A stretch of 64,000 bases of DNA from assembly GCA_903908245.1 (NCBI GenBank), contig CAIVRE010000002.1:26761-90760 (forward strand), in the 5' to 3' direction. Source of the stretch: Candidatus Omnitrophota bacterium. GTDB taxonomy: Bacteria; Omnitrophota; Gorgyraeia; Zapsychrales; Fredricksoniimonadaceae. Positions 23,624-55,477 of this stretch are shown here, in pieces. The position numbers and the translations under genes are program-made. The stretch's first letter is position 1. Each line of letters starts with the position of its first letter. The notes under the pieces were generated by a model. That model searched no databases and was not told the DNA's origin. It was given only the letters and a program-made list of their open reading frames with translations.

Positions 23624-25192
23624 CTATTTCCCGGCTTTGTCCGTCTTGGGCAACTCCGCCGGCTTGGCCGCCTGCAATGACTTGGCCTCCTCTACTGCCG
23701 CAGAAAGCTCGGGCGACATGGCCGGTACTGGCACCTTGGCCGACTTGGCTGAAACAGACTCCATTGTCGGTGTAATAATATGCGGGGTCAGGAATATCAA
23801 CATCTCCGACTTGTTAACGGTTTCCGCTTTATGACGGAAAGGGATCCCCAATATGGGGATCCATCCCAGGAACGGAACATCATTATGGCTTATCGTTTTG
23901 TCCTCGCTGATCAACCCGGCGATCACGAGCGTCTCGCCATCCCTGATCATAACCATGGTCTTGACCGCCTCATTGGTCAACACCGGCATGGTCGTTCCCA
24001 GGACCGTGACTGTCTTGTCCGAAATGCTTGAGACCTGCGGCTCAAGCTCCAGCGTGATCAAGGACGCGTTATTGATATGCGGGGTCACGTTAAAAATGAC
24101 GCCCAGATCAATATAACTCCAGCCTGAAACCACCATTGTATTGGTTTGCGAACTGAACGAATACTGGGGCATGGGATATTGATCGCCCACCTGGATCCTG
24201 GCCGGCTGATTGTCCATCGTCACCAGCTGCGGGTTGGATATGCTCTTGGTATTACCACGCGATTGAAGCGCATCAATGACCAGGCTCAGGTCGGTAATGC
24301 TCAACGTGCCATAGGTGATCACCGGTGCGGTTGCAGCCGGGCCCATTGCAGGCAAATACATGTCCTTGTTAGGGCTCCAAGGAAAAGAATGCGGCCGCGT
24401 GCCAAAAGTCGCTTTCCCCGACACCTGGGTCAGCTTGGACCAGTCGATCCCCATGGTTTCCGACTTGGTCAACCCCGTCTTGATGATCCGTGCTTCGATC
24501 AGGACCTGGGGAGTAACGGTATCGAGTGTCTTAACAACCTCCGTGATCAACTCAAGGTTGCTTTCCACATCGCTGACAATGACCGCATTGGTACGCTTGT
24601 CAAAATTAATGCTCCCCCGGGCTGTTTTCATTTTATCAAGAGAAGCCACCACATCTGCGGCCTTGCTGAAATTCAGCACGAAAGTTTTTGTCGCAATAGG
24701 CTCCTGGTCGGCCAAAGCCTTGGCATCCTCACGGCGTTTCTTGAGGTTCTCCACCGTAGTCACCATGATGATCGTACCCTTCTGCTCGTAACTGTACCCA
24801 TAGGTCGAAAGGATCACATCGAGCGCCTTCTGCCACGGCACATCCTTGAGCTGAATATTCACCATCCCGACCACTTCGGGACCGGCAATAATGTTAATGC
24901 CGCTTTTATACGACAAGACCTTCAGGACATTCTTGATATCCGCCTCACGGAAATCCAGCGATACGTTCCCGGTCTTGGACATCTTGAACTCCATGACCGC
25001 CTCCGATACAGCCACCGGAGCTGTCGCCGCAACCGGGACGGCCGCAACAACAGGGTCAACCGAGCTCACAGATGTCACCGTTTGCGCCGCTTGCCCGGCC
25101 GGGACGGCTTGCGTATCAGCCTTATCCTGGGCATGACCCGCGGGAATACTTAACACCATAATCAAAAACGCGAGGCAAAGGATCCTCACCAT
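23624..25192 (-). CDS. pilQ: type IV pilus secretin PilQ
   Basis: Signal peptide, N-terminal AMIN/N0-like regions and a C-terminal secretin domain. Confidence 0.85.
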   Translation of the reverse strand: MVRILCLAFLIMVLSIPAGHAQDKADTQAVPAGQAAQTVTSVSSVDPVVAAVPVAATAPVAVSEAVMEFKMSKTGNVSLDFREADIKNVLKVLSYKSGINIIAGPEVVGMVNIQLKDVPWQKALDVILSTYGYSYEQKGTIIMVTTVENLKKRREDAKALADQEPIATKTFVLNFSKAADVVASLDKMKTARGSINFDKRTNAVIVSDVESNLELITEVVKTLDTVTPQVLIEARIIKTGLTKSETMGIDWSKLTQVSGKATFGTRPHSFPWSPNKDMYLPAMGPAATAPVITYGTLSITDLSLVIDALQSRGNTKSISNPQLVTMDNQPARIQVGDQYPMPQYSFSSQTNTMVVSGWSYIDLGVIFNVTPHINNASLITLELEPQVSSISDKTVTVLGTTMPVLTNEAVKTMVMIRDGETLVIAGLISEDKTISHNDVPFLGWIPILGIPFRHKAETVNKSEMLIFLTPHIITPTMESVSAKSAKVPVPAMSPELSAAVEEAKSLQAAKPAELPKTDKAGK

Positions 25193-25570
25193 TTACTCCT
25201 CCTTCTTTATACGAAGTTCCGAAACCTGTCCGTCTTTGACCAAAGTCACCTTGTCCGGCTCGATCTTTGCGACCGTGTACATTCCGAACAGCTTCCCCTG
25301 CTCAACCACCGTACCATTAATGATCGCAATGCCGCCCTCACCATCACTCACGATCCCTTCCAGCACCATTTCCGCAACCGCGAAACTGGTCTCGTAGGTC
25401 ACGATCGCACCGCCCGCCGTTACCAGCGGCCAGAACGGATCCCGCTGGGAGTGTTCATCATACACAAACTCCGCCTCTGAAGCCGGCGCCACCGGCTCAG
25501 TGGGATTAGCCGATGCCCGCGCCATCAGAAAAAACAGCACAACAATAAAGGCCAGGACAGAACGGATCAA
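25193..25570 (-). CDS. pilP: type IV pilus assembly protein PilP
   Basis: A 125-aa signal-peptide protein with an RDPF motif, positioned between pilO and pilQ. Confidence 0.7.
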   Translation of the reverse strand: MIRSVLAFIVVLFFLMARASANPTEPVAPASEAEFVYDEHSQRDPFWPLVTAGGAIVTYETSFAVAEMVLEGIVSDGEGGIAIINGTVVEQGKLFGMYTVAKIEPDKVTLVKDGQVSELRIKKEE

Positions 25571-25571
25571 A

Positions 25572-26153
25572 CTATTTCTCCAAAATGAGGATCTTCATGT
25601 TCATTTTAACTTCCTGACGCTGAATATCCTTTGTGTCCGTCGCGATCTCGAACTCATCCAATTGCCAGAACAAACGGTCGCGTTCCAAACGATTCAAGAA
25701 CCGGCCGAACTGATGGAACCCGGAACTGATCCGGACAGAAATATTCATCGAGTAATACTTTCCATCTTCACTCACAACCAAAGGCGCAACACTGATAGGC
25801 TGCGGCGTTAATTGGTCGATCTTGACCCCATACTCATTGGCAATACTGGAAATGCTCCTTAACACCACCGGGACCTCGTCTTTACGATGGACCATCGCTT
25901 CAAAATTCTTGCGGGCCATCCGGGCAAGCTCGAGCTGGGTCTTGAACTGTACCAGCCGCTGTTTATTGGTCGAGAGGTCCGTAATATCTTTATCCAGCTG
26001 AACGATCTTGGCGTCCAGCGACCTCACCAGGCCCAGCTGAACACGCATCACCAGCACAAAATCCACCAAAGCGAACAGGGCGATCATCCCGGCAAGGATC
26101 ATATAAAGATACTTGACCTCAAGCTCCTTGAGCTTCTCCAGCGCAGGGTTCAT
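25572..26153 (-). CDS. pilO: type IV pilus assembly protein PilO
   Basis: N-terminal transmembrane helix then coiled coil, in the pilMNOPQ order. Confidence 0.75.
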   Translation of the reverse strand: MNPALEKLKELEVKYLYMILAGMIALFALVDFVLVMRVQLGLVRSLDAKIVQLDKDITDLSTNKQRLVQFKTQLELARMARKNFEAMVHRKDEVPVVLRSISSIANEYGVKIDQLTPQPISVAPLVVSEDGKYYSMNISVRISSGFHQFGRFLNRLERDRLFWQLDEFEIATDTKDIQRQEVKMNMKILILEK

Positions 26154-26746
26154 GGGGCCTTCCTTTTCGCTTTCAGGGCAAAGTCCGCGATCGAAAGCGC
26201 AGTCCCCTCCCGACGCTCAATGGAATCAACATCAATGCCGGTAAAAGCCCCTTTCAATCCTGGCTGTTCTTTGAGCATAGCCACAAAATTATTCACAATG
26301 ATCATCTCATTCTTGACTTTAGAGACCGCACTGCCGCGAATAGTGAACTGGCCTCGGTCAAAATGGATCTCACGGAGCCATACGCCCTTCGGAACGCTGT
26401 CAGACACTTCGTTCATCAATCTGGCCCAGACAACACCTTGCGCGGAGGTTATGGCCCTCAAGGCATTCATTTTTGTCTGCAATGTTTTTGTTTCATTCGT
26501 AACATCATCCAGGACCTTCTTCTGCGCGCCCATCGAGGCCCAACGGACCTGAAGCATCGTATGCTGGGCGGCCTTGACCAACGCCAGCCCCGCCAACGCA
26601 AGATGAAGAAGGACCAGCACGCCGGCCCCGGCCACCAGGATCCCAAGGATCGCCTCACGCGTCAACGGGCCGAACCCGTCCTGCCAGATATTCCCGCGGT
26701 CTTTCCGCGCTTCCTGAGGGATGAAATTAACCTTGATCATATTCAT
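26150..26746 (-). CDS. pilN: type IV pilus assembly protein PilN
   Basis: Starts MNMIKVNFIPQE, with a single transmembrane helix. It overlaps both neighbours. Confidence 0.75.
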   Translation of the reverse strand: MNMIKVNFIPQEARKDRGNIWQDGFGPLTREAILGILVAGAGVLVLLHLALAGLALVKAAQHTMLQVRWASMGAQKKVLDDVTNETKTLQTKMNALRAITSAQGVVWARLMNEVSDSVPKGVWLREIHFDRGQFTIRGSAVSKVKNEMIIVNNFVAMLKEQPGLKGAFTGIDVDSIERREGTALSIADFALKAKRKAP

Positions 26747-27815
26747 TGAGCGCCAACCCCAGGGCCGTGATAAGCCTGGAACTGTTCGCCTTTAACCCTT
26801 CCCTGGATACATTGGGTGCCACGATCATCCTTTCAAACGGGTCCCAAATACTGACAGGAACATCGACCCCGTCCTTGAACGCCTTCTCGACACCGGGGAT
26901 CTGCGCTCCGTCCCCGGCCAAAAAAACACGCGTTATTGCCAGGTTCTTTTCCGTCACAAAATATTCGAACGACAAGCGTATTTCCGCGATGAGATTCATC
27001 ATCACCGCATCCACGGATTTCTGGGCCGCTTCACTTAACGCCATACCGGGACGTAAAAGAACATGCGCTTCAGCGGGTGGAACACCAAGAAGATTGGACA
27101 CACGTTTGTAAAGTTCCTGCGTGCCGATAAAAATATCCCGGTTGAACCGTGGCAATCCTGCGAAAACGATCATCAAATTCGTACCGGTCTCGCCGATATC
27201 GATCACCGCACAAGCCTTGAACTCCCTGGCCCCCGACCCCGAAGCAAACCCTTCCGGCGGAAATACGGCAAAAGCATTGGCCAGCGCCACCGAAGCAAGC
27301 GTAACCGTTAACGGCTCCATCCCGGCCTCTTTAAGCAATTTCATGCGCCCGTCAACCAGGTCTTTTTTCACCGCTGACACAAGGACAGACATTTTGCGGT
27401 TATTATCCATCGTGTCAAGGATATGACAATCCGTATAAACAGTATCCTTGGGGAACGGGAAATATTTGTCGGATTCGATCGCAAATGCCCGGCGAAGGTC
27501 TGCGGTCGACATCCTGGGCATATCCACATACCGCACCAAGGTCCCCTTGCCGCTCACCGAAGCGACCACCGCGCGTGGCCCGGCCTGTCCAAAAGAAGAC
27601 GCCAGTTTCCCCAACACGGCCAGGGCCGAACGGTCATCATTATCGGACAACAGCTCAAGGCTCCAGCGCGACAATTCGAAAGCCCCGTTCTTCAAGAAAA
27701 GTTCAACAACTTTACACGAAGAAGGGCAAATATCAAGTCCGACAGAACTGCTCTTGGGATTCAACGGGAACAAACGCTTGATGAATTTGAAGTATGTATC
27801 AATAAAAGAGGCCAT
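26727..27815 (-). CDS. pilM: type IV pilus assembly protein PilM (actin-like ATPase)
   Basis: 362 aa with an actin/HSP70-like fold, first gene of pilMNOPQ. Confidence 0.8.
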   Translation of the reverse strand: MASFIDTYFKFIKRLFPLNPKSSSVGLDICPSSCKVVELFLKNGAFELSRWSLELLSDNDDRSALAVLGKLASSFGQAGPRAVVASVSGKGTLVRYVDMPRMSTADLRRAFAIESDKYFPFPKDTVYTDCHILDTMDNNRKMSVLVSAVKKDLVDGRMKLLKEAGMEPLTVTLASVALANAFAVFPPEGFASGSGAREFKACAVIDIGETGTNLMIVFAGLPRFNRDIFIGTQELYKRVSNLLGVPPAEAHVLLRPGMALSEAAQKSVDAVMMNLIAEIRLSFEYFVTEKNLAITRVFLAGDGAQIPGVEKAFKDGVDVPVSIWDPFERMIVAPNVSREGLKANSSRLITALGLALNEYDQG

Positions 27816-27939: not shown

Positions 27940-27976
27940 CTTCACAAAAAGAAGAAGGGGCCATGAAGGCCCCTTC
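27940..27976 (-). terminator. Rho-independent terminator after pilA
   Basis: Minus strand reads GAAGAAGGGGCC-ttcat-GGCCCCTTCTTC followed by TTTTTG. Confidence 0.8.
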
Positions 27977-28004
27977 TTCAAGAAACACACTTCGACCACA
28001 TTCA

Positions 28005-28394
28005 TTAGGGTGTCAAAATACCGCCCGTGCTCATCGTGAAAGTAGTCGTCCCTGATGTGCTGACCGTCACAGGCGTAGCAATGAACGAATACGACCCCGT
28101 AGCGAATGTGCAACTATACACGAACCCTGCATTAGTGGTGCCGCAATAGTTCTTGTTCGTATACGGTGGCGTTGCACCCGTCAAAGAAGCCTCGGATCCA
28201 GGATAAGAACCATTATTCGCCGTTCCGAAGGTCTCGGAAGCGGTCGAAAGTGAACGCAACGTACCCTTGGCCAAAGCATCATTCGCGGAAATCTTTGCCC
28301 TTAACAGGTTCGGGATCGCAATAGCGGCCAAAAGCGCGATAATAGCCACCACGATCATGATCTCAACTAGAGTAAAACCTTTTTTATTAGACAT
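28005..28394 (-). CDS. pilA: type IVa major pilin / prepilin
   Basis: KKGFTLVEIMIVVAIIALLAAIAIPN is a class III signal with Gly-Phe cleavage and Glu5. Confidence 0.9.
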   Translation of the reverse strand: MSNKKGFTLVEIMIVVAIIALLAAIAIPNLLRAKISANDALAKGTLRSLSTASETFGTANNGSYPGSEASLTGATPPYTNKNYCGTTNAGFVYSCTFATGSYSFIATPVTVSTSGTTTFTMSTGGILTP

Positions 28395-28733: not shown

Positions 28734-29786
28734 CTAACGGACCTGGCCCATCTCCTTTTCAAGAAGCGCTTTCTTTTTATCCATGCTGACCATGGAACGC
28801 TGAAGATTCCTCAACCCCATGGACAAGTCCCTGTTACGCGTAAAAAGTTCCTTGAACCGGGCCTCATCCTTCTTCAATTTGGCATCCTGAGGCAACGCTG
28901 TCTTGGCGGTCCGTATCGCTTTCTCCGCTTCTGCGGCCTCTTTCTCCAGCCCCTTGGCCTTGGCCTCCAACGCCTGAATGTCCTGCTCTAGCTGAGCCAC
29001 CGCCTGTAAGGAGAATTTCGCCGAAACGTCATCCGACTCTTTGACAGCTACAGCCAGCTTCTGGCGAAGCCCGTCGATCTCCTGCGTACGGCGGATCATG
29101 TCACTCTTAAGCGCCGCCTGTTCCTGGGTCAACGCTTCCCCCTGGCCAGGCCCGGCATTAACGAACACAACAAGATCTTTCCACTCTGCACGCAAACGGT
29201 CAAGCTCGATAGTATACGCGTCAAGGGCTTGTTGTGCCGACTGCTGTTCGGCGCGCAAAGCCTCCAGTTCCGCCGTATGATCCTCTCCCGGCACAAGCCC
29301 GGTACGGATATCCGACAACTCTCGCGACAATGCCTCCGACTGGGCAGTCAAAGCCGATGACTCCACATCCTTGATCTGAAGCTGCTCTTCAAGGGTAGCC
29401 CTCTGACTATTGAGCCCTGCAAGGTCCGCCGCCCCCCCCTTGAACTGCTCTTCCAGCGAAGAATGCTCCTCTGCTTTTTTTTGATACGCTGGGTCCAGAA
29501 GCCGGAGCTGCGCGTTGATCTTGTCTCCCTGGGCCTGCTCAAGCTTCAATTCATCATTAAGGGCGCGGATCTTCACCCTGATCTGGTCATTGCCTGAAGC
29601 CAACTTCGCGTTCTCCCCGCTCAGCCGGGTGACACTGTCCTTCAATGTGTTCAATGTGTAATCCAGCTTATCCTGCGCGCTTGAAGCTGCCTCAATGGAT
29701 CCCGGCCTCGAAAGAAGGTCTGCGGGTTGCGCATAAGCCGAAAAAGCAAAAAGAACAAAGAATAAAATAACGGATCGTCCCATCAA
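28734..29786 (-). CDS. secreted coiled-coil protein
   Basis: Signal peptide (MMGRSVILFFVLFAFSAYA), then about 320 aa of heptad-rich sequence high in Q, E, A and L. It lies between pilC and pilA. Confidence 0.6.
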   Translation of the reverse strand: MMGRSVILFFVLFAFSAYAQPADLLSRPGSIEAASSAQDKLDYTLNTLKDSVTRLSGENAKLASGNDQIRVKIRALNDELKLEQAQGDKINAQLRLLDPAYQKKAEEHSSLEEQFKGGAADLAGLNSQRATLEEQLQIKDVESSALTAQSEALSRELSDIRTGLVPGEDHTAELEALRAEQQSAQQALDAYTIELDRLRAEWKDLVVFVNAGPGQGEALTQEQAALKSDMIRRTQEIDGLRQKLAVAVKESDDVSAKFSLQAVAQLEQDIQALEAKAKGLEKEAAEAEKAIRTAKTALPQDAKLKKDEARFKELFTRNRDLSMGLRNLQRSMVSMDKKKALLEKEMGQVR

Positions 29787-29821: not shown

Positions 29822-31030
29822 TCAGATCATCTGCGTAATGCTGATGATCGGCATGAACAGTGCTATCACAATAAAACCGATAACGATCCCCAGAAAACCG
29901 ATAATGAACGGCTCGATCAGGCTGGTCAGGGTTTCCACCGACGCGTCCACCTGCTCATCAAAGAAGTCCGCCACTTTGACAAGCATCTTGTCGAGCTGGC
30001 CCGACTGCTCGCCGACCGAAACCATCTTGGTCACCATTGACGGAAAAACCTTGCTCCGGGTGAGCGGCTCCGAAATGCTTTCCCCCTCTCGCACGCTGCT
30101 GATGACCTCTTCAATGACCCGCTCCAGCACGCGGTTCCCGATCGTCTTGCGCACAATATCAAGCCCTTCCAGGATCGGCACACCGCTCTGGATGAGGACC
30201 GATAATGTACGGCAAAAACGGCTTACCGCCACTTTCTTGAGCAGATCGCCGAACACCGGCAGCTTGAGCTTGATCCCGTCTATCTTATACGCGCCTTTTT
30301 CCGTACGCTGATACGCGATGCATGCCGCCACAAGAGCCCCGCCCACAAAAATGATCTGAAGAAAATTATTCTTAAGCCCGCTGCTGACATCCACCAGGAC
30401 CTGGGTCATCGCCGGCAGTTTGCGGTCAAAGGATTCATAAATGGTCGCAAAGGTGGGGACCACCTTGACCAGAAGCACCGTAGTCACGATCATCGCCATC
30501 GACACAATGACCGCCGGATAAACAAGCGCCCCGCCCACCTTGCGCTTGAGGCGCTCGGACTTTTCCATATAGGAAGAAAGCCTTTCCAGGACTGTCGTCA
30601 GGACGCCACCGGTCTCACCGACCCGGATCATATTGATGAACAAGCCGTCAAATACCCTGGGATGCTTGGCGAACGCCGAAGAAAGGCTGCTGCCCAGGCG
30701 GATATCATCACGTACTGTCACCAGGATCTTTCTGAACGACGGATTCGACGTCTGCTCCTGCAAGGCATCCACTGTCTGGAGGATCGGGATCCCCGCATCG
30801 ACCATAGTGGCCATCTGGCGGGCAAAAAGGATGACATCCTCGCTCTTGATCGGCGCAGTCCTCTCGGAAGAGGCCGGCATAAGCGACGAGCCCCTTTCTT
30901 CTTCAAGGCTTATAATGATCAGCTTGCGCTTGCGCAGCTCGTCGACCACCGCCGACTGGTCCGCCGCGGATATCTTCCCGGTGAACGTCCGCGCTTCAAA
31001 ATCTTTTGCTGTGTAACGGTATGTCGCCAT
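29822..31030 (-). CDS. pilC: type IV pilus platform protein PilC (GspF family)
   Basis: Two GspF repeats. The start MATYRYTAKDFEAR forms a TAATG overlap with the upstream ORF. Coordinates are trimmed from the longer ORF. Confidence 0.85.
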   Translation of the reverse strand: MATYRYTAKDFEARTFTGKISAADQSAVVDELRKRKLIIISLEEERGSSLMPASSERTAPIKSEDVILFARQMATMVDAGIPILQTVDALQEQTSNPSFRKILVTVRDDIRLGSSLSSAFAKHPRVFDGLFINMIRVGETGGVLTTVLERLSSYMEKSERLKRKVGGALVYPAVIVSMAMIVTTVLLVKVVPTFATIYESFDRKLPAMTQVLVDVSSGLKNNFLQIIFVGGALVAACIAYQRTEKGAYKIDGIKLKLPVFGDLLKKVAVSRFCRTLSVLIQSGVPILEGLDIVRKTIGNRVLERVIEEVISSVREGESISEPLTRSKVFPSMVTKMVSVGEQSGQLDKMLVKVADFFDEQVDASVETLTSLIEPFIIGFLGIVIGFIVIALFMPIISITQMI

Positions 31031-31515
31031 TATTTCCCCCCTGGCCCCGCATCGGACAACTCCCGAAGGGGATAAAAACGGTCCAATGCGATATCGATCT
31101 CGGTCGGGGTCGTGATGAACGTCGCAATATTGCATCCCGTGACCCGCTCCACTTCCGCGCGAAGGGCATCGTCGAGCGGGCCGGACATCACAATGCTAAG
31201 GACATTCCCGATACGATCGAGGGGGATCAGCCTGTCCCTGCGTGCCATTTCCACCGGAATAAGCTGTGCCACATCACAATCGACCATATGCTTGCTGACA
31301 GAAATATACGGCAGGTTGCACTGCAAAACCAGGGCCGTCACGATATCGATCTCGGTCAGTATCCCGAGGCGGATAAGGACCTCGCCGATAAATATTCCCG
31401 GAGAGGCCTTTTGATGCTTCAGCGCGAGGTCAAGGTCCTGGCGCGTGATAAGCCCTCGCTCGACCAAGACCTCACCGATCAGTTTGCGGTCCAGACAGCA
31501 TTTCGTCATAAACAT
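31030..31515 (-). CDS. stand-alone MshEN/T2SSE_N-domain protein
   Basis: 161 aa. It contains LIGEVLVERGLITRQDLDLALKHQ, which matches the MshEN c-di-GMP-binding motif RLGxxLLxxGLITxxQLxxALxxQ. Confidence 0.65.
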   Translation of the reverse strand: MFMTKCCLDRKLIGEVLVERGLITRQDLDLALKHQKASPGIFIGEVLIRLGILTEIDIVTALVLQCNLPYISVSKHMVDCDVAQLIPVEMARRDRLIPLDRIGNVLSIVMSGPLDDALRAEVERVTGCNIATFITTPTEIDIALDRFYPLRELSDAGPGGK

Positions 31516-31583
31516 CCCCCGGAATCCCGTCCTTTATTCCATTATATCCGTGATCAGATGCGGTAAAAGATAAAAATCCGTTT

Positions 31584-33284
31584 TTACTCATCCGATACGA
31601 TACGCAACACTTCCTCAATGGTCGTCTGCCCCTGCGCCAGGCGCTCGACCGCGTCATCCCAAAGAACGCGAAGGGTCTTCTGTGCGCGGGCATAATCCTT
31701 GATATCGTCCGAAGACTTCCCCTGCAGGAGCATTTCACGCACCGCATCGTCCATGACCAGGATCTCGGTCACCGCGAACCGGCCGCGATACCCCGTATGC
31801 CGGCAATGGTCACAGCCTTTCCCGGCGTAAAACCTGGTCTTGGGATCCAGGGCCCCCTCGAACTTCTTTAACGCTTCCGCCGGAACTTCGATCTCATGCT
31901 TGCAATGCGGGCATATCTTGCGGGCCAGGCGCTGCGCGCAAACCAGGACCAGGCTGGAAGCGACCAGGAACGGCTCCACATCCATGTCGACCAGCCGCGT
32001 CAACGCGCCGGCGGCGTCGTTCGTATGCAAAGTGGAGAAAACAAGCTGCCCGGTCAGGGACGCTTTGATGGCGATATCCGCGGTCTCGTTATCACGGATC
32101 TCGCCCACCATCACGATATCCGGGCTCTGCCGCAAAATGGAACGCAGGGCGGCGGCGAACGTCAGCCCGATATCCGAGCGGACCTCGATCTGCGTCAGCC
32201 CGTCCACCAGGTACTCGACCGGATCCTCGACTGTAATGATATTCTTGTCAAGGCTGTTCAACTGGTTAATGATCGAATAAAGGGTTGTCGACTTCCCGCT
32301 CCCTGTCGGGCCTGTCACCAGGATCATGCCGAACGGCTTGACGATCCCTTCCTGAACAAGCTTGAGCGAATGATCGGACAATCCCAGCTGCCCGAGGCCG
32401 ACCGAAAGGTTCGCCTTGTCCAATAAACGCATCACGACCTTCGGGCCGTAACTGGTCGGAAGGATGGACACGCGGAAATCCACTTCCTTGCCCAGCATCC
32501 TCATCTTGAACCGCCCGTCCTGGGGGATCTGGGTGACCGTGATATCCATCCGCGACATGATCTTGATCCGCACCAGGACCGCGCTCTGGCTCTCGCGCGG
32601 GATCTCAAGCACATCGATCAGGACCCCGTCCACGCGATAACGGACGCGCATATTCCCCTCGGTCGATTCCATGTGCACATCCGACGCCCGCTGGTGCAGC
32701 GCCTCCTTGAGCACCAGGTTCACCATGCGGATCACAGGCGCCTGCTCGCTGCCGTCAATATCGGCGGCATCTTCCGCCTTGACATCGGTAATGATCTCGA
32801 AATCACCCACATCGATATTCTTGCTGATCTCGGATACCGACCCCTGGTCCGCCCCGCCGTAAAAACGGTCGACCGCTTCCTTGATCTGGGACGGTGCCGC
32901 CATCACCACATCGATCTTCTTTCCCGTCAGGTCCCGCAAGTCATCCAGGGCAAAAACATTGAGCGGATCGCCGAGGGCGACCGTCAGGCTGGTCCCGAGC
33001 GTGGCAATAGGAATAAGGTTATACTGCCGCGCCAGGCGCTCCGGGACCTCCTCTTTCAGGCGCGGGTCCAGTTTAAAACGCCGAAGGTCGACTGAAGGGA
33101 TCTTGAGCTCGCGCACCAAAAGCAGGACAAGGTCTTTCTCGGGGATGATCCCTTTCTGCACGACCGCCTCGGCGAAAGGGATATTCGTTGCCCGCTGGAA
33201 TTCCAGCGCGGCATCGACCGCCTGACGGTCAATGCCCGGCAGCTGAAGAAGCGCGTCAATAATGCGTTCACGGACATTCGCCAT
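31584..33284 (-). CDS. pilB: type IV pilus assembly ATPase PilB (GspE family), paralog 1
   Basis: N-terminal T2SSE_N domain, Walker A (GPTGSGKSTTLYS) and tetracysteine motifs CPHC...CDHC. Confidence 0.85.
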   Translation of the reverse strand: MANVRERIIDALLQLPGIDRQAVDAALEFQRATNIPFAEAVVQKGIIPEKDLVLLLVRELKIPSVDLRRFKLDPRLKEEVPERLARQYNLIPIATLGTSLTVALGDPLNVFALDDLRDLTGKKIDVVMAAPSQIKEAVDRFYGGADQGSVSEISKNIDVGDFEIITDVKAEDAADIDGSEQAPVIRMVNLVLKEALHQRASDVHMESTEGNMRVRYRVDGVLIDVLEIPRESQSAVLVRIKIMSRMDITVTQIPQDGRFKMRMLGKEVDFRVSILPTSYGPKVVMRLLDKANLSVGLGQLGLSDHSLKLVQEGIVKPFGMILVTGPTGSGKSTTLYSIINQLNSLDKNIITVEDPVEYLVDGLTQIEVRSDIGLTFAAALRSILRQSPDIVMVGEIRDNETADIAIKASLTGQLVFSTLHTNDAAGALTRLVDMDVEPFLVASSLVLVCAQRLARKICPHCKHEIEVPAEALKKFEGALDPKTRFYAGKGCDHCRHTGYRGRFAVTEILVMDDAVREMLLQGKSSDDIKDYARAQKTLRVLWDDAVERLAQGQTTIEEVLRIVSDE

Positions 33285-33287
33285 AGC

Positions 33288-35012
33288 CTATTTCTCGTCC
33301 TGCGCGGTAACGCGCACGACCTCCTCAAGTGATGTCAGGCCTTTGGCCGCCTTGGCCAATGCATCCTCGCGCATCGTACGCATCCCCTCGGCACGGCCCG
33401 CGGACTTGATCTGGATCTCACCGGCCCTCGCGAGGATAAGTTTCTTTACCCCCAAAGACATCGGCAGGACTTCATGGATGCCTACGCGCCCGGAATAGCC
33501 GGACTTCAGGCACTGCACGCACCCTTTCCCGTGATAAAATGTCAAATCCTTGCCCGGGATGATCTTCCCGATATTCAGCTTGTTATAAAGCGTCTCGGAA
33601 ATGGTCACAGGTTCCTTGCAGCTGGGGCAAATGCGGCGCACCAACCGCTGCGCCACCAGGCAATTGACCGCGGAACAGATCAGAAAAGGCTCGATCCCCA
33701 TATTGACCATACGCACAACAGACCCGGACGCCGTCGTGGTATGCAAAGAACTGACCACCAGGTGCCCCGTGAGCGCGGCCTTGATCCCGATATCCAACGT
33801 TTCGGAATCACGGATCTCGCCGATCATGATCACATCCGGGTCCTGGCGCAGGATCGACCGCAGCGTCGCGGAGAACGTCAGGCCGACCTCATAACGGATA
33901 TTGACCTGGTTAAGGCCCTTCATCTGATACTCAACAGGGTCCTCGACGGTCACGATATTCTTACCCGGAGAATCGATATGCCGAAGGATGGAATAAAGCG
34001 TTGTGGTCTTTCCCGAACCCGTTGGGCCGCAGATCAAGATCAATCCGTGCGGACGGTCACAAGCCTCCTTGAGCCGGGCCAGCGGACCGGCTTCGATACC
34101 GAGCTTTTCGATATCCACCCGGCCCTGGTTCTTGTCCAGGACACGCAAGACCACCTTCTCTCCGTAAACCGTCGGCAGGACGCTCACGCGGAAATCCACT
34201 TCCTTGCCGCCTTCCAGGACAGATTTAAAACGGCCGTCCTGTGGCAAACGATGCTCGGAAATATCCAGGTTCGACACAACCTTGATCCGCGACACGATCG
34301 GAAAATGCAATGCCTTGGACATACGGTCGATCTCCCGCAGGACGCCATCAACGCGATAACGGATCCGCAAGCTCTTTTCCAGCGGCTCAATGAACACATC
34401 ACTGGCTTTGGCGGCAACAGCCTGACGGACGATCGTATTCGCCAGGCGGATAATAGGCGCTTCCTGCGTAATGCTCTCGATCTCTTTCGCGTCGAACTTT
34501 TCACCGCCCTCATGGATCAGTTCCACTTCCTCGGCGTCCTTAATATCGCGCAGGATCTTGTCAAAAGACTCGTCCGGCTTCGGAGCGGTATACTGCTCGA
34601 TCGCGTCCTGGATATCTTTCGGGCGCCCGATAATAGGAGTGATCGTAAGCCCCGTGAGCGCCTTCACATTATCGATCGCGAAAATGTTGAGCGGGTCCGC
34701 CATGGCCAATGACAGATTGTCTCCGATGCGCGACACCGGAAGGATGCGGTATTTTCTCAGGATCTCCACCGGAAGGAGATTAACAACGGCAAGATCGATC
34801 TTAAGACGGGAAATGTTGATCACCGGAAGATGCAGCCCCTCGCTCAAAAGGAACGCGAGCTGCTCCTCATCAATAAGGCCCATCCGCACGAGGATCTTGC
34901 TCAACTCCCCGCCGGTAGTATCCTGCTCCTGGATCGCGCGGCCAAGATCCTCTGAACTCAGGATCCCGTCACGGAGCAAAATAGCCTTGATCCGTTCTTT
35001 GAATGTCGGCAT
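33288..35012 (-). CDS. GspE/PilB-family secretion ATPase, paralog 2
   Basis: N-terminal T2SSE_N domain, Walker A (GPTGSGKTTTLYS) and tetracysteine motifs CPSC...CVQC. Confidence 0.85.
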   Translation of the reverse strand: MPTFKERIKAILLRDGILSSEDLGRAIQEQDTTGGELSKILVRMGLIDEEQLAFLLSEGLHLPVINISRLKIDLAVVNLLPVEILRKYRILPVSRIGDNLSLAMADPLNIFAIDNVKALTGLTITPIIGRPKDIQDAIEQYTAPKPDESFDKILRDIKDAEEVELIHEGGEKFDAKEIESITQEAPIIRLANTIVRQAVAAKASDVFIEPLEKSLRIRYRVDGVLREIDRMSKALHFPIVSRIKVVSNLDISEHRLPQDGRFKSVLEGGKEVDFRVSVLPTVYGEKVVLRVLDKNQGRVDIEKLGIEAGPLARLKEACDRPHGLILICGPTGSGKTTTLYSILRHIDSPGKNIVTVEDPVEYQMKGLNQVNIRYEVGLTFSATLRSILRQDPDVIMIGEIRDSETLDIGIKAALTGHLVVSSLHTTTASGSVVRMVNMGIEPFLICSAVNCLVAQRLVRRICPSCKEPVTISETLYNKLNIGKIIPGKDLTFYHGKGCVQCLKSGYSGRVGIHEVLPMSLGVKKLILARAGEIQIKSAGRAEGMRTMREDALAKAAKGLTSLEEVVRVTAQDEK

Positions 35013-35461
35013 TAATCCCCGCTGTAATATCTTTTAATGGCGTTACGAATATCCGTCGTGGTGCTCACAAACGCCTGCACGGTACACCCGGTCAGAAGCT
35101 CAACATTTTCCACCGCCTTCATATTAAGCGGATTTGACATTGCCAACGTCAGGCTCTTGCCGATCTTGTCGATCGGGATCAGGCAGAACTGCTCGCATAC
35201 ATTCCCCGGGACAGACCTGGCCACGTCGGCATCGATCTCGTAATTGGCCAAAGGCAAATAAGGGAACCCGTACTGGCATGTCAATGCCTGGGCAATATCC
35301 TCTTCCGTGGCAAGTCCCAGCTGGATCAGGGCCTCACCGAAAAGGACTCCGGCATGAGAATGCTGGAACTCAAGGGCTTTTTCCAGATGATCGCGCGCAA
35401 TAAGCCCGCGTTCCACCAGAAGCTCACCCAAATGTTTATTGGAAGACCGTTCGTATCGCAT
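35012..35461 (-). CDS. stand-alone MshEN/T2SSE_N-domain protein
   Basis: 149 aa with HLGELLVERGLIARDHLEKALEFQ. Its stop overlaps the PilB paralog 2 start as TAATG. Confidence 0.65.
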   Translation of the reverse strand: MRYERSSNKHLGELLVERGLIARDHLEKALEFQHSHAGVLFGEALIQLGLATEEDIAQALTCQYGFPYLPLANYEIDADVARSVPGNVCEQFCLIPIDKIGKSLTLAMSNPLNMKAVENVELLTGCTVQAFVSTTTDIRNAIKRYYSGD

Positions 35462-35591
35462 TTAAACCCGGATTTTCCCCGTATGCCTTGATCCCCATTA
35501 AGAAACACGGGGAAAGTTTCTATTAAGACTTCATTACATCATACTTTACTTAATTAAATATTATATGTCAATCCAACCCCTGCTTTTCCCC

Positions 35592-35657: not shown

Positions 35658-36761
35658 TTAAGCCGACCGCTTGGAACTCAAGTTCAGGAGTATCCCGATG
35701 AGCACGGCAAAGACCATGAACGATGTGCGCCCATAACTGATAAGGGGCAGTGTAATACCTACCACCGGGCTCAGGCCGATGGTCATGCTGATATTGATCA
35801 CGACCTGCAGGGCCAGGATGCTGACAACACCGATCGCCATCATATGCCCAAAACGATCCTTCACTCGTTCGGCGATCTGCAACCCTGTCCAGATCAGCAT
35901 AAAATAACAGACCAAAAGAAAGACCGCCCCCAGAAAGCCCCACTCCTCGCCGATCACAGAAAAAATGAAATCCGTATGCCGCTCCGGCAGAAAATTCAAC
36001 TGGTTCTGCGTACCCGCCAGCCAACCCTTGCCGAACATCTGCCCGGATCCTACCGCGATCCTCGATTGAATGATCGTATACCCGGCCCCCAGGGGATCAG
36101 CGTTCGGATTCATAAAAACCAGGATGCGGTCCCGCTGATAATCCTTCAGAAAATGCCAGCCAACCGGAACCAGGGCCGTACAAGCGCCCAGAAAGATCCC
36201 GAACGGCCGCATCTCCTCACCCGAAGCGTAAACCATCACAATAAAGATCCCGAGCACCAGAAGGGCCGTGCCCAGATCCGGTTGTTTAAAGATCAGTGCA
36301 AAACTGATGAGTACAAGAATGAAAGGGAACAGCAGGTCCTGACAGGCAGCGCGCATGGCCCCCCGCACACTGAAAGAAAACCTTTCGTTGCTGGAACTGA
36401 AATACCGCGCCAGCATCACGATGACCGCAAGCTTCGAAAGCTCTGAGGGCTGGAAAGAGAAAAACCCCATGTTGAACCAGCGCGTGGCCCCCAACGCCGA
36501 ACGGCCGGAAAAAAGGACCGCCAGCAGGAGCACAACGCTTAAGCCATAGATCACATACGCGCTATCATAAAAGAACCGGTAGCTCACACGGCTTAAGATG
36601 AACATCACGCCCAGGGCCATCAACGACCAGATCAGCTGGTCAAAGAACACCTGGCGGGTCACGCGGACATTCTCGTAGGTCGCACTGTAAAGCGCGATCA
36701 GCCCGACCGCGATAATAAATATGGTAAACACCCATATGGTGCGGGTCTCGGCGTTGCTCAT
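35658..36761 (-). CDS. rodA: FtsW/RodA/SpoVE-family peptidoglycan glycosyltransferase
   Basis: Ten-transmembrane-helix SEDS-family sequence. The start was taken at MSNAETRTIW, forming an ATGA overlap with the upstream small ORF. Confidence 0.8.
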   Translation of the reverse strand: MSNAETRTIWVFTIFIIAVGLIALYSATYENVRVTRQVFFDQLIWSLMALGVMFILSRVSYRFFYDSAYVIYGLSVVLLLAVLFSGRSALGATRWFNMGFFSFQPSELSKLAVIVMLARYFSSSNERFSFSVRGAMRAACQDLLFPFILVLISFALIFKQPDLGTALLVLGIFIVMVYASGEEMRPFGIFLGACTALVPVGWHFLKDYQRDRILVFMNPNADPLGAGYTIIQSRIAVGSGQMFGKGWLAGTQNQLNFLPERHTDFIFSVIGEEWGFLGAVFLLVCYFMLIWTGLQIAERVKDRFGHMMAIGVVSILALQVVINISMTIGLSPVVGITLPLISYGRTSFMVFAVLIGILLNLSSKRSA

Positions 36762-36991
36762 TTCCCGTTCTTCACCCACGGCCACGGGCATTGATATTTA
36801 CAGGCGATCTCGGGATACGGCGTTTTCACGCGCTTGAGGCACGCGGCCTTGCAGCGAAAATTATCCGCGACCGGGACCAGGATGAACATCGCCAGGATAA
36901 CGATCAAAAAGATCTTCCTCTGCCGGTCGGACAACAACGGTTTTTTTGGATCCGGCGCCTGCCTTGTTTTACTGTTATTCTTCTTTCCCAT
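36758..36991 (-). CDS. small membrane peptide with Cys-rich extracytoplasmic tail
   Basis: 77 aa: a K/R-rich N-terminus, one transmembrane helix (IFLIVILAMFILVPVA), then CKAACLKRVKTPYPEIACKYQCPWPW. A Shine-Dalgarno AGGGGGA lies 9 nt upstream. Its stop overlaps the rodA start. Confidence 0.45.
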   Translation of the reverse strand: MGKKNNSKTRQAPDPKKPLLSDRQRKIFLIVILAMFILVPVADNFRCKAACLKRVKTPYPEIACKYQCPWPWVKNGK

Positions 36992-37005: not shown

Positions 37006-38514
37006 CTATTTCTTCTCTCCGAAAACGTCCGCGGTAAACACCTCGATCCGGGTCCCGGGCTGCTTCCAACAATCCAGCGCAAGGCCGGCCTTCTGCGCAC
37101 AAAGCTCGGACAAGAACCGCTCTTTGGTCCAACCCGTCTCCGTCGCGACCTGCGGCAGGAAAACACCGCGATTAAAATACCCGCGCGAAACGATAACCCC
37201 GTGCTTCCCCAGCTGGATCTCGTCGACACTCCCGATCACCCTCGGTTGGGACAAAACCGAGATCTCGATATCAATATCCTTGAGCTCCCCGGCGCTGACA
37301 GGCGGGAACCGGGGGTCCTGCGAAGCCGCGGCCACACCCATATCGCGCACCGTCCGGTACAGCGGCCCCTGGCCGATAATATTGCCGATACACCCGCGCA
37401 ACTGCCCGTGCGCATGCAGCGTCACGAACGCACCTTCTTCCGCGTTCAAACGGGGGTCTTTCTCCTCAACCTCTGCCGCCTTGCCATCACGCACAAAAGA
37501 CTCGACTGTCCCACGGGCGATCGCAAGCAAACGCGCCCGCTGAGCCTCGTTCAACACACTGCCCGCAATTCCTGCCTCCGCCACGGCAGATGCCGTATCT
37601 TTATAAAAAATGACCGACGCATACCCTACCACCCGGTCTTTATCCCCGGTAGTGTCCGCCGATGTCGCGTATTTCAAAACTTTTGCTTTCCCGAACCCCT
37701 GTGCCTTCGCATACAACATGGCCGCCGTGACCACATGAAAACCGTCAACCTCCATCGACCCGTCCCGATGGCCCTGCCACAGGGCTTCCACATCCATCGA
37801 CTCGATCGCCTTCAAGCCCCGGCCATCGATCTCATGCGCCTGCGCCTCGGTATGAAAATGAGACTGATCCACGCTCACGTCAACAAGGACATCATCACGC
37901 TTACCGACCGCCAGGGCCAAGGCATCCGCCATTGAACGCAACACATCCGCATCCGGCGGATAGCCCAGGATGACCGGGACGATCCTGGCCCCGGGGAAAG
38001 CGCGCTGGACCATCGGCAGCTGTGTTTCCACCGAATTCTCCGGCTGGCCCGGAGCGCCCTCAAAGACATCCTTACGAAAAGTAAATCGCTTGTCAAAAGA
38101 CAGTATCCTGGCCGCAAGATCCGTATCAACCTCGATCCTCCCGAGCGGCGTTTCAAAAGCCCCTTGCGCCCAGACAGAAGCACCGGAAAATGAAAAATGA
38201 TGGCTCGGGGCAAGAATAATGACCGTCGACACCTTCCGGGCAGATGCGGCCTTGAAGCCGTAGGCCGCCACAGGCGCCGAGAAAACATACCCCGCATGAG
38301 GAGAAATAAGAACGCCGATGCTTTTGCCTGCCGGCTCCTGGGCCAACGCCCCGGACGCTGTGGCAAGAAAACCATCGACCATCCGGGAAAGCTCGGCGGG
38401 TTGCCCCGGATACCAGCTTCCCGCCAATCCGGCAGTCTTGATATTATTATCGGCAAAGGAAGGCCTGCTCATGATGCACAACCCCAAAAAGGCCAGCAAG
38501 AGTTTAACCCGCAT
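37006..38514 (-). CDS. secreted MEMO1-like / AMMECR1 fusion protein
   Basis: Sec signal peptide MRVKLLLAFLGLCIMSRPSFA. Memo motifs: AGSWYP, SPHAGY and APSHH. The C-terminal AMMECR1 domain carries LRGCIG. Confidence 0.75.
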   Translation of the reverse strand: MRVKLLLAFLGLCIMSRPSFADNNIKTAGLAGSWYPGQPAELSRMVDGFLATASGALAQEPAGKSIGVLISPHAGYVFSAPVAAYGFKAASARKVSTVIILAPSHHFSFSGASVWAQGAFETPLGRIEVDTDLAARILSFDKRFTFRKDVFEGAPGQPENSVETQLPMVQRAFPGARIVPVILGYPPDADVLRSMADALALAVGKRDDVLVDVSVDQSHFHTEAQAHEIDGRGLKAIESMDVEALWQGHRDGSMEVDGFHVVTAAMLYAKAQGFGKAKVLKYATSADTTGDKDRVVGYASVIFYKDTASAVAEAGIAGSVLNEAQRARLLAIARGTVESFVRDGKAAEVEEKDPRLNAEEGAFVTLHAHGQLRGCIGNIIGQGPLYRTVRDMGVAAASQDPRFPPVSAGELKDIDIEISVLSQPRVIGSVDEIQLGKHGVIVSRGYFNRGVFLPQVATETGWTKERFLSELCAQKAGLALDCWKQPGTRIEVFTADVFGEKK

Positions 38515-39663: not shown

Positions 39664-40020
39664 TCAGATATATTTCCTGATCTTATCAAGAAGCTCCTGA
39701 TGCGGGAAAGGCTTGATAACATACTCCTGCACCCCCTCGGCCATAAAAATATCGACCAGCTCGGGTTTACAGGTAAGGACAATGATCGGTGTTTTTACGA
39801 CCCCTTCGATCTTGCGCATCGCAAAAAGAAAGGCGTATCCGTTAACCTTGGGCATCACCACATCGAGGATGATCAGGTCGGGATGCTCGACCTCGAGCTT
39901 CTGCAAAGCCTCATCGCCGTCATTAGCCACAACAACATCAAACCCGTGTTCCCCGAGATAACTGCCGAGCAAACGGGTCAAAGTCGGATCATCATCCGCG
40001 ATCAAAACCTTCTTGCCCAT
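39664..40020 (-). CDS. single-domain response regulator (CheY-like receiver)
   Basis: Contains DDD, a phospho-acceptor D in LDVVMP, a T in VLT and a K in IKPF. Confidence 0.8.
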   Translation of the reverse strand: MGKKVLIADDDPTLTRLLGSYLGEHGFDVVVANDGDEALQKLEVEHPDLIILDVVMPKVNGYAFLFAMRKIEGVVKTPIIVLTCKPELVDIFMAEGVQEYVIKPFPHQELLDKIRKYI

Positions 40021-45220: not shown

Positions 45221-45221
45221 A

Positions 45222-55431: not shown

Positions 55432-55477
55432 CGCCTTTTTCTTGTTCTCACTAAATCCGGCCTCGCCCGGGCTCACA

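Follow-up and report, generated by a model that had tools for sequence, protein, structure and literature searches.

In MshE-type pilus assembly ATPases the c-di-GMP receptor domain, known as MshEN or GSPII, is the N-terminus of the ATPase itself, and the G11I substitution in MshE leads to a loss of c-di-GMP binding (PMC5013675). Thermus thermophilus PilF carries three GSPII domains, of which GSPII-A does not bind, GSPII-B binds c-di-GMP at 6 nM and GSPII-C binds at about 0.3 µM (PMC11731258, PMC12002112). Binding by PilF is lost with Q190E together with Q218E; position 1 of the GSPII-B repeats is K and L, and the PilF authors have proposed hydrophobic replacement as a predictor of high affinity (PMC11731258). 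However, GSPII-A remains non-binding even when its consensus is fully restored, with the N-cap and inter-subdomain contacts being responsible (PMC12002112), and a perfect consensus motif is therefore no guarantee of binding.

We analysed a 64,000-nucleotide window of a Candidatus Omnitrophota genome (contig CAIVRE010000002.1), which contains the operon for the cytoplasmic motor of a type IVa pilus, with pilMNOPQ directly downstream. On the minus strand the gene order is sMshEN-2, PilB-2, PilB-1, sMshEN-1, PilC, a secreted coiled-coil protein and the pilin, followed by the pilMNOP-secretin block. The first gene, sMshEN-2 (35012..35461; 149 aa), encodes a stand-alone MshEN/GSPII protein (Pfam PF05157, 67 bits), and is followed by genes for two type IVa extension-type ATPases, PilB-2 (33288..35012; 574 aa; T2SSE 443 bits, MshEN 77 bits) and PilB-1 (31584..33284; 566 aa; T2SSE 439 bits, MshEN 80 bits). 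These precede a second stand-alone MshEN protein, sMshEN-1 (31030..31509; PF05157, 60 bits), and the PilC platform protein (29822..31030; 402 aa; two T2SSF repeats, 227 bits). All four MshEN-bearing proteins thus score 60–80 bits against a PF05157 cutoff of 23 bits, with T2SSE detected in the two long ones only. The coiled-coil protein (28734..29786; 350 aa) has an N-terminal signal-like segment and, as its only domain match, a sub-threshold hit to crescentin-rod; it is kept only in close relatives, at the same position in about 16 loci and with 26–58% identity (tblastn). The major pilin (28005..28394; 129 aa) has an N-terminal methylation motif (Pfam N_methyl, 37 bits). Downstream are pilM (26727-27815; PilM_2), pilN (26150-26746), pilO (25572-26153), a PilP-like ORF (25193-25570) and the secretin gene (23624-25192), all five on the minus strand and pilN, pilO and the secretin each with the Pfam match of that name; this block (23624..27815) supplies the same machine with its alignment and outer-membrane components.

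The borders of the operon can be placed with some probability from sequence patterns. A minus-strand sigma-70-like promoter candidate (TTGACA-17 nt-TAAAGT; 35543..35571), found by consensus scan as a pattern match only with 10/12 matches, sits in the 196-nt gap between the RodA/FtsW gene (35658-36791) and sMshEN-2 and is the probable operon start, while its probable end is a hairpin resembling an intrinsic terminator (27951..27979; 12 bp, 8 GC) that lies past the pilin gene on the same strand and leads into a T run. Both TAATG stop/start overlaps that had been claimed are found in the sequence, between sMshEN-2 and PilB-2 (...GGGGATTAATGCCG) and between sMshEN-1 and PilC (...GGGGGGAAATAATGGCG), with a G-rich Shine-Dalgarno-like run 3–9 nt 5' of each downstream ATG. 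Translation of sMshEN-2 is probably coupled to that of PilB-2, and translation of sMshEN-1 to that of PilC. Among 79 related loci the sMshEN-2/PilB-2 junction is -1 nt in 36, and it is ≤8 nt in most of these loci; a 1-nt overlap alone is common in operons. The gene order, sizes and domains given in the original prediction were confirmed, with the exception of two starts. That of PilC was set to 31030 from the TAATG junction, with the mechanical ORF extending to 31135, and for sMshEN-1 the protein stands but its proposed size of 161 aa (ORF to 31515) is less likely, as the ATG at 31509 (159 aa; MTKCC...) is the most likely start given its proper Shine-Dalgarno spacing and the form recorded in databases (P0121). 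As had also been noted, no PilT is present in the window, where the ATPase domain, searched with phmmer against the ORFs of all six frames, hit the two PilBs only, and its absence from 64 kb carries little information on the whole genome.

Using AF2, both small proteins are modelled as complete two-subdomain MshEN/GSPII domains, comprising a four-helix bundle at the N-terminus and an alpha/beta subdomain at the C-terminus, at confident pLDDT values of 84.8 for sMshEN-2 and 86.1 for sMshEN-1, which has the same topology. In the sMshEN-2 model helix alpha1 is extended to residue 6 with low confidence. Foldseek matched this model to MshE with bound c-di-GMP (5htl; TM 0.79/0.85, rmsd 2.0 Å), and also to PilF GSPII-B with c-di-GMP (8pdk), to GSPII-A and to the Xanthomonas (Xac) PilB N-domain. 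Likewise, sMshEN-2 aligns over its full length to the N-domains of PilB, PilF and MshE, with PilF the top sequence match in four aligned stretches. We identified 3635 homologues of sMshEN-2, the best 120 of which are all 147–163 aa with PF05157 as their sole domain, and relatives occur in at least 565 GTDB species genomes; those that are named belong to the Omnitrophota without exception. In most species the length of the small MshEN protein is constant at 148–153 aa, while sMshEN-1 defines an Omnitrophota family of 141–168 aa.

A survey of relatives showed that this architecture is shared: the order RodA-sMshEN2-PilB2-PilB1-(sMshEN1)-PilC was present in 80/80 Omnitrophota genomes inspected, and relatives at 45–49% identity retain the sMshEN-PilB-PilB-PilC order. 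The sMshEN-1 gene is an optional component, being present in 39/62 loci and missing in 23/62. Both small proteins are under strong purifying selection, with dN/dS of 0.03–0.10 for sMshEN-2, which is as low as for the ATPases, and 0.08–0.30 for sMshEN-1, and sMshEN-2 is the best-conserved protein of the operon, ranking first of the four core proteins in 48/58 loci. These data bear on whether the small ORFs could be pseudogenised N-terminal remnants of decayed ATPase genes, or could be artefacts of assembly or of a frameshift in what is really one longer (MshEN)2-PilB gene. There could have been a fused ancestor, as cis-fused (MshEN)2- and (MshEN)4-PilB proteins exist elsewhere (P0188, P0190, P0176), and sMshEN-2 does join PilB-2 with a 1-nt overlap; however, the same split and lengths recur across 80 independent genomes, the predicted domains are whole, and the gene that follows sMshEN-1 encodes PilC and not an ATPase, which makes this origin extremely improbable. 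The reading as pseudogenes or decayed fragments was rejected on the grounds of purifying selection, constant length and phylum-wide conservation.

The two ATPases share 40% identity and each has Geobacter PilB as its best PDB match (PilB-2, 5zfr, 549 bits; PilB-1, 505 bits). PilB-2 keeps Walker A and B, the Asp box, the TGH His box and Cys4 across 70 orthologues, while the His box of PilB-1 reads TGQ, in 64/64 orthologues. Each PilB also retains its own degenerate MshEN-fold N1 domain. The original prediction had sensing split off the motor, and in the sense of domain fission this does not hold, because with N1 still in place on both PilBs the small proteins are additional paralogous copies, closest to each other, and the arrangement reflects duplication with labour divided among the copies rather than the literal splitting of a domain.

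We compared the ligand-contact motif over the two 24-residue repeats in 39–80 genomes; in the window sMshEN-2 these are H10-Q33 and L40-Q63. In both repeats Gly3 is kept in 99–100% and Gln24 in 94–100% of sMshEN-2 sequences, each is invariant in sMshEN-1 (100%), and about 100% of both families have hydrophobic residues at p2, p17 and p21; the small proteins thus keep the residues that experiments have found decisive for c-di-GMP binding. In the N1 domains of the PilBs the hydrophobic positions are retained while Gly3 and Gln24 are lost: for repeats I and II, Gly3 occurs in 0% and 5% of PilB-2 orthologues and in 0% and 13% of those of PilB-1, while repeat II Gln24 is at 0% in both, with Glu in its place in PilB-1. 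In the window proteins Gly3 is replaced by K and S (PilB-2, repeats I and II) or I and A (PilB-1), and repeat II Gln24 by G and E, respectively. Thus the poorer fit of the ATPase N-termini that had been noted for this locus is true, and is much stronger phylum-wide. As judged from the alignment, both PilBs carry substitutions equivalent to the binding-null MshE G11I and PilF Q190E/Q218E. Since these N1 domains lack Gly3 and Gln24, the fold is independent of the two residues, and their strict retention in the small proteins points to selection for the ligand.

The MshEN signature that had been assigned to the small proteins is therefore upheld for Gly3, Gln24 and the hydrophobic triads of both repeats but not for the canonical Arg of RLG, which is absent from all four: position 1 is H and L in sMshEN-2 and L and F in sMshEN-1, making this an Arg-free variant. 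Across the families it is H or Q in sMshEN-2 repeat I and F or Y in sMshEN-1 repeat II, residues outside the published R/K/L or R/K/P/N sets. Other positions also deviate from the consensus, with p10 mostly K and p12 mostly A in repeat II across the sMshEN-2 family, an inter-repeat spacer of six residues in the window proteins versus five in MshE, and Asn at the equivalent of PilF D266 (Gly in the window sMshEN-1). Such deviations would fit small proteins that sense no nucleotide and are ligand-independent structural subunits, providing additional N1/GSPII "landing pads" in the manner of Thermus PilF GSPII-A, a non-binding domain of the same fold for which partner recruitment has been proposed. 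They might then tether or order the two PilBs on the PilM ring or PilC, or compete with PilB N1 to switch the engaged ATPase. GspE N1E domains bind GspL, a PilM homologue, and 2bh1 and 4pht are weak fold matches to sMshEN-2; a contact between PilB N1 and PilM has been inferred in a review (PMC11656802). Arg-free binding has experimental precedent, however, with PilF GSPII-B making the observed position 1 residues compatible with binding, and a purely structural role leaves the 94–100% retention of two residues unneeded for the fold unaccounted for. We regard such a role as possible but doubtful.

Signalling genes near the small genes point in both directions. The window encodes neither a c-di-GMP enzyme nor a PilZ protein, and the commonest adjoining GGDEF protein, TM-HAMP-GAF-GGDEF encoded -1 to 70 nt upstream of sMshEN-2 in 25/80 loci, is degenerate at its active site (GDHEF or AEHEF), has no RxxD I-site and may, by its sequence, be unable to make c-di-GMP; both observations would suit subunits that need no ligand. 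Against this, intact GGEEF, HD-GYP and PilZ genes recur in slots adjoining the small genes. One locus (L060) has a REC-GGEEF plus a GGDEF-AAA-HEAT protein between PilB-1 and sMshEN-1, that slot is occupied in two others (L082 and L083) by an intact HD-GYP (HHERYDGKGYP), and in another (L081) two PilZ genes flank the sMshEN gene; MshEN-PilZ fusion proteins were also found. It is also conceivable, if unlikely, that the small proteins bind another ligand, such as a different cyclic dinucleotide, or hold the nucleotide as a permanent structural cofactor, and so are constitutive parts of a two-ATPase motor and not signal receivers. PilF GSPII-B, with its Kd of 6 nM, is thought to be ligand-saturated in most conditions and its authors raise a structural-cofactor role, weak cGAMP binding by MshEN has been described (PMC5013675), and the universal presence of sMshEN-2 in the phylum and its extreme conservation are what would be expected of a core subunit. 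However, the backbone contacts of Gly3 tell guanine from adenine, and the variable adjoining signalling genes (REC-GGDEF, HD-GYP, PilZ, REC) suggest regulated nucleotide levels.

We favour, at a probability of roughly 0.55, a reading in which c-di-GMP is sensed in trans by the small MshEN proteins as accessory subunits and not by the motor, the N1 domains of whose ATPases are degenerate. In this arrangement sMshEN-2 is the predicted c-di-GMP receptor subunit and sMshEN-1 a predicted accessory second receptor; we infer c-di-GMP binding, the docking partner and the sign of regulation. Each small protein would bind one c-di-GMP in its N-terminal bundle, with contacts from the main-chain amides of Gly3 and of the residue after it, from the side chains of Gln24 and from two hydrophobic triads, in an arginine-free mode as in PilF GSPII-B, and both PilB N1 domains would have lost nucleotide binding. 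The loaded small proteins would then dock on the motor, most likely with their N1E-like C-subdomain reaching the PilM ring, the PilB N1 domains or PilC, and so license or position both ATPases for pilus assembly.

The C-terminal subdomain of the small proteins is a module of the N1E type, by which secretion ATPases are anchored to the cytoplasmic GspL/PilM ring, as in GspE N1E-GspL (EpsE-EpsL) docking, although neither there nor for the proposed contact of the PilB N1D with PilM has a stand-alone N1E/MshEN partner been described, and here it is an interaction that we infer. The logic is also that of the PilZ-FimX-PilB complex of Xanthomonas and Pseudomonas (PMC8389850; PDB 7lkm-7lko), whose adaptors, a PilZ protein and a degenerate EAL domain, are unrelated in fold and, unlike the small proteins, are not paralogous to the N-domain of the ATPase. 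With MshE-type ATPases the small proteins share the fold (TM 0.79–0.85 to 5htl), the tandem pair of 24-residue repeats (Gly3, Gln24, Leu triads) and a setting in pilus assembly; they differ in that position 1 is not Arg and that the intact copies are separate polypeptides of 149–159 aa while the ATPase copies are degenerate. Like Thermus PilF, this motor has several MshEN/GSPII domains, with predicted binding and non-binding copies and Arg-free repeats (K/L at position 1 of GSPII-B, H/L and L/F here), but where PilF fuses all its domains in one chain on its only ATPase, the domains of this motor are distributed among four genes and two ATPase paralogues. In effect the multi-GSPII arrangement of PilF would be distributed over separate polypeptides, with the ATPases carrying non-binding "landing pads" in cis and the binding domains acting in trans.

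The pilus genes form a compact row on the minus strand at 27.9-35.6 kb of the window. First in the row is sMshEN-2 (35012-35461, 149 aa), a stand-alone MshEN protein, followed by the tandem ATPase genes PilB-like-2 (PilB-2; 33288-35012, 574 aa) and PilB-like-1 (PilB-1; 31584-33284, 566 aa), and by a second stand-alone MshEN protein, sMshEN-1, whose open reading frame spans 31030-31515 and whose start we placed at 31509 from Shine-Dalgarno spacing and the form given in the database (P0121, 159 aa). Next come pilC, which starts at 31030 and encodes a T2SSF protein with two repeats, a 350-aa coiled-coil protein with a signal-like N-terminus (28734-29786), and a 129-aa pilin with an N-methylation motif, with pilM, pilN, pilO, a PilP-like ORF and the secretin lying directly after the pilin. 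Both of the TAATG junctions that had been claimed for the two small genes were found in the sequence, each with a G-rich Shine-Dalgarno-like run within the 3' end of the upstream gene. Judged from pattern matches only, the operon may be bracketed by a promoter-like TTGACA-17-TAAAGT ahead of sMshEN-2 and a 12-bp hairpin, accompanied by a T-run, after the pilin.

Upstream of sMshEN-2 lies rodA, which adjoins and is preceded by a gene for a single 502-aa protein (37006-38514, minus strand) that fuses a Memo-like and an AMMECR1 domain. A small group of signalling genes, ~4 kb upstream of the pilus operon and on its strand (39664-40993), encodes two receiver proteins and one that is weakly CheX-like. 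Five long ORFs (376-934 aa) in the window had no Pfam match at E <= 0.001, these being 61037-63841 and 41307-42581 on the minus strand, and 55265-56611, 44102-45250 and 558-1688 on the plus strand; the latter three may be spurious, given that nearly every gene identified lies on the minus strand.

The best homologues of sMshEN-2 are 147-163 aa in length, match PF05157 only, are 65-100% identical and, wherever the source names them, belong to Candidatus Omnitrophota. In a scan using one genome per GTDB species we found a relative in at least 565 genomes, and inspected the loci of the best 80, which are Omnitrophota MAGs with some records labelled Planctomycetales or Elusimicrobia. The order RodA, sMshEN-2, PilB-2, PilB-1, (sMshEN-1), PilC is kept in 80/80 loci, and the separation of a small MshEN gene from PilB, on which the original prediction turned, recurs in all 80. 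At the sMshEN-2/PilB-2 junction the genes overlap by 1 nt in 36/79 loci, and the distance is <=8 nt in most. Where both PilB-1 and PilC are present, sMshEN-1 was found in 39/62 loci, and in the remaining 23 the gap between PilB-1 and PilC is 12-239 nt, which is too short to hold it. More distant relatives, with 45-49% identity to sMshEN-2, retain sMshEN-PilB-PilB-PilC, and in a third homologue search the named relatives of distant stand-alone MshEN representatives were again Omnitrophota. Since the order is kept in the 80 loci and in distant Omnitrophota relatives, the module is a hallmark of the phylum and not peculiar to the window.

Some loci differ in other respects. The position of the coiled-coil protein is occupied by a related protein only in closer relatives (26-58% identity, ~16 loci), with other sequence elsewhere. 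At one locus (L033:5828-10920) sMshEN-2 is separated from PilB-2 by ~5 kb of extra genes, which may be a mobile insertion disrupting the module there, and the N-terminus of PilB-2 is apparently in two pieces. A transposase (L034), a PIN protein (L018) and a glycosyltransferase-TPR protein (L010) upstream of sMshEN-2 were set aside as unrelated insertions.

PF05157 matches the C-terminal α/β subdomain of both small proteins, with 67.2 bits for sMshEN-2 and 59.9 bits for sMshEN-1 (cutoff 23.1), and residues 8-147 of sMshEN-2 align to the N-terminal domains of Geobacter and Myxococcus PilB, Thermus PilF and V. cholerae MshE. Likewise, AlphaFold2 models of sMshEN-2 (pLDDT 84.8) and sMshEN-1 (pLDDT 86.1) both display four helices followed by an α/β subdomain, which is the two-subdomain MshEN fold of a four-helix bundle and a three-stranded sheet with flanking helices. 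Using Foldseek with the sMshEN-2 model we obtained a superposition on MshE with bound c-di-GMP (5htl) with TM scores of 0.79/0.85 and an rmsd of 2.0 Å over 137 residues, matches to 9g1w, 8pdk and 2d28 at a probability of 1.00, and superpositions on both GSPII-A and GSPII-B of Thermus PilF. Against eight orthologues, dN/dS was 0.03-0.10 for sMshEN-2, 0.08-0.30 for sMshEN-1 and 0.04-0.20 for the ATPases, values that are rough as dS is saturated; selection on the small proteins is clearly purifying. Furthermore, sMshEN-2 is the best conserved of sMshEN-2, PilB-2, PilB-1 and PilC in 48/58 loci. Conservation, dN/dS and fold together rule out that the small proteins are pseudogenes or fragments of ATPase genes. 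The two match each other with E = 7.5e-35 and sMshEN-2 matches the PilB proteins with E ~1e-21, so by sequence similarity they appear to be extra paralogues, nearest to each other. The original prediction that c-di-GMP sensing was split off the motor into adaptor proteins fits in part only, since a degenerate N1 domain persists in each PilB.

In the binding subclass of MshEN, Gln24 of the 24-residue repeat contacts the ribose and phosphate of c-di-GMP. In MshE, the backbone of Gly3 and the next residue and the Gln24 side chain make the only polar contacts with the ligand, the rest being hydrophobic stacking, with the Gly3 backbone amide reading guanine O6/N7, and G11I abolishes binding (PMC5013675). 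In Thermus PilF, the repeats of the GSPII-B domain have K and L instead of Arg at position 1, the domain binds c-di-GMP at 6 nM, and Q190E plus Q218E abolishes this binding; the authors of that study widened the consensus to (R/K/L)LG and suggested hydrophobic replacement of Arg as a predictor of high affinity (PMC11731258). The strict and 'relaxed' published regexes were unusable as a test, because they missed one repeat each of proven binders such as PilF GSPII-B and Myxococcus PilB, and the Wang-relaxed motif matches neither small protein. In their place we tallied the residues at the key positions in alignments of each family across the 80 loci.

Both small proteins contain two tandem repeats, separated by 6 residues in the window proteins, while the spacer is 5 residues in many sMshEN-2 orthologues, 5-7 in PilB homologues and 5 in MshE. 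For repeats I and II of sMshEN-2, respectively, Gly3 is present in 79/80 (99%) and 80/80 (100%) sequences and Gln24 in 75/80 (94%) and 80/80 (100%), and in sMshEN-1 both residues are present in 39/39 (100%) in each repeat. In PilB-2, Gly3 is found in 0/79 (K or Q) and 4/79 (5%; S) and Gln24 in 97% and 0% (G or S), and in PilB-1 the corresponding values are 0/71 (I or L) and 9/71 (13%; D or E) for Gly3, and 79% and 0% (E) for Gln24. By alignment, the changes in the ATPases are of the types known from experiment to abolish binding, with the hydrophobic core positions kept. Because these domains have largely lost Gly3, and have lost Gln24 of repeat II, yet keep the core, the fold evidently tolerates loss of these residues, and the near-absolute retention of the two in the small proteins is best explained by selection for the ligand.

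The remaining positions are mixed. In all four repeats of the small proteins, 96-100% of sequences have a hydrophobic residue at positions 2, 17 and 21, with Ile instead of Leu at position 17 of repeat II, and in repeat I a K/R one residue upstream of position 1 is invariant or near-invariant. Position 1 itself falls outside the published sets in 2/4 small-protein repeats: in sMshEN-2 it is H or Q in repeat I (outside R/K/L) and L in 80/80 in repeat II, and in sMshEN-1 it is L in 34/39 in repeat I and F or Y, hydrophobic but not listed, in repeat II. The ATPases have R and E (PilB-2) or K or R and S or G (PilB-1) here in repeats I and II, respectively. Several repeat-II positions of sMshEN-2 also differ from the consensus, and the equivalent of PilF D266 is Asn. 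The main rival explanation is that the small proteins are scaffolds that work independently of a ligand, in the manner of GSPII-A, a domain which in Thermus still did not bind after its consensus was restored, owing to N-cap and subdomain contacts (PMC12002112). Given this precedent and the deviations at position 1, the spacer, repeat II and D266, c-di-GMP binding by the small proteins is probable and no firmer than that, with the conserved Gly3 and Gln24 speaking for a ligand over a scaffold. An extension of helix α1 in the sMshEN-2 model was considered as a GSPII-A-like block and set aside, as pLDDT is ~42 for residues 1-10.

PilB-1 and PilB-2 are 40% identical and both match Geobacter and Myxococcus T4aP PilB best, over the full length (505-549 bits). 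Both families (64-70 orthologues) have intact Walker A and B motifs, an intact Asp box with its catalytic Glu and an intact tetracysteine motif, and both have the N1, N2 and C-terminal domains and the motifs of a T4aP extension ATPase, with the exception of the PilB-1 His box. This reads TGH in 70/70 PilB-2 orthologues and TGQ in 64/64 PilB-1 orthologues, the first His being replaced by Gln in PilB-1 of the window (residues ~409-424, SLTGQLVFSTLHTNDA). Such a fixed catalytic-site difference would fit non-equivalent roles of the paralogues. Taking PilT-type proteins as T2SSE ATPases of ~350-400 aa that lack both the N1 domain and the tetracysteine motif, we found none in the window, as originally noted, where phmmer with the ATPase domain recovered only the two PilBs, and none within +/-10 kb of the module in 80/80 related loci.

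Pfam scans of ~50 ORFs and phmmer with GGDEF domains detected no GGDEF, EAL, HD-GYP or PilZ gene in the window. In relatives, c-di-GMP genes recur in two slots adjoining the small genes. The first is directly upstream of sMshEN-2, where 25/80 loci carry a TM-HAMP-GAF-GGDEF gene (~475 aa) on the same strand at a distance of -1 to 70 nt (for example L025:8498-9970; found in L017, L021, L023-L025, L029, L031, L032, L039, L042, L043, L047, L050, L053, L057, L058, L060, L061, L065, L068-L070, L076, L077 and L079). The encoded protein has a degenerate active site (GDHEF or AEHEF) and no RxxD I-site. Scanning 1.34 Mb of related loci for the string GG[DE]EF had picked out one gene only, and homology searching exposed these 25 neighbours. 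The second slot lies after PilB-1. At L060:13907-18951, between PilB-1 and sMshEN-1, it holds a REC-GGEEF protein with intact A-site and I-site together with a 1383-aa AGDEF-AAA_16-HEAT protein, and at two more distant loci (L082:11821-12861 and L083:8530-9570) the PilB-1/PilC slot held by sMshEN-1 in the window is filled by a receiver-like and HD-GYP protein with an intact signature (HD...HHERYDGKGYP). Elsewhere among the relatives, two PilZ genes flank an sMshEN gene (L081:3361-4780) and a receiver protein gene precedes one (L084, L085). Global relatives include MshEN-PilZ fusions (P0209, P0217, P0224), with two c-di-GMP receptor folds per chain, and PilB proteins with (MshEN)2 or (MshEN)4 in cis. 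Odder fusions involve relatives of the sMshEN-2 domain in P0176, P0178 and P0212: a PilB bearing four MshEN domains and a C-terminal double zinc ribbon, a family-2 glycosyltransferase with six MshEN domains, and a DnaA-type ATPase with one.

Among c-di-GMP receptor modules, MshEN is the second most widespread and, to our knowledge, has so far been studied only as the N-terminus of an enzyme under its regulation. Stand-alone forms are common in sequence space (18,961 representatives at E < 1e-3, many of 140-210 aa), and varied MshEN fusions were already noted in 2016. Our literature search (Omnitrophota with pili, PilB, PilT or c-di-GMP; stand-alone MshEN) did not find the present arrangement described, nor this Omnitrophota module, the tandem PilB pair or a stand-alone MshEN that serves the pilus motor as a cofactor. 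Pili are thought to be central for the Omnitrophota, a phylum of uncultured and often ultra-small bacteria that may depend on hosts, and the module points to a putative regulatory layer for pili in them. Its interest is mainly that of a natural experiment on how MshEN acts upon secretion ATPases, being a phylum-wide case in which the receptor copies are free-standing and the ATPase copies carry substitutions equivalent to laboratory binding-null mutations. It offers a clean system for two questions posed in a review of PilB cofactors (PMC11656802), how ligand-bound MshEN acts on the motor and what the N1 domain contacts, and the small proteins are a candidate class of PilB cofactor absent from the list in that review.

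The best-supported reading is that the small proteins would act in trans, as the c-di-GMP receptor subunits of a pilus motor that has two ATPases. They may dock to PilM, the PilB N1 domains or PilC, as suggested by the known N1E-GspL contact, by the PilB N1-PilM contact, itself inferred (PMC11656802), and by their translational coupling to PilB-2 and PilC. An extended version, which we regard as rather unlikely, is a phylum-specific four-part motor in which one or two Arg-free, high-affinity trans receptors choose which of two non-equivalent PilBs, one with the invariant TGQ, engages PilM/PilC, and in which a small MshEN protein gates the second PilB, which would fill the opposing role (retraction or a switch) that falls to PilT elsewhere. 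Among known systems, the trans-receptor arrangement is like Thermus PilF in combining non-binding and probable binding domains, which here are spread over separate polypeptides, and in its logic the small MshEN proteins resemble the PilZ-FimX adaptors of Xanthomonas.
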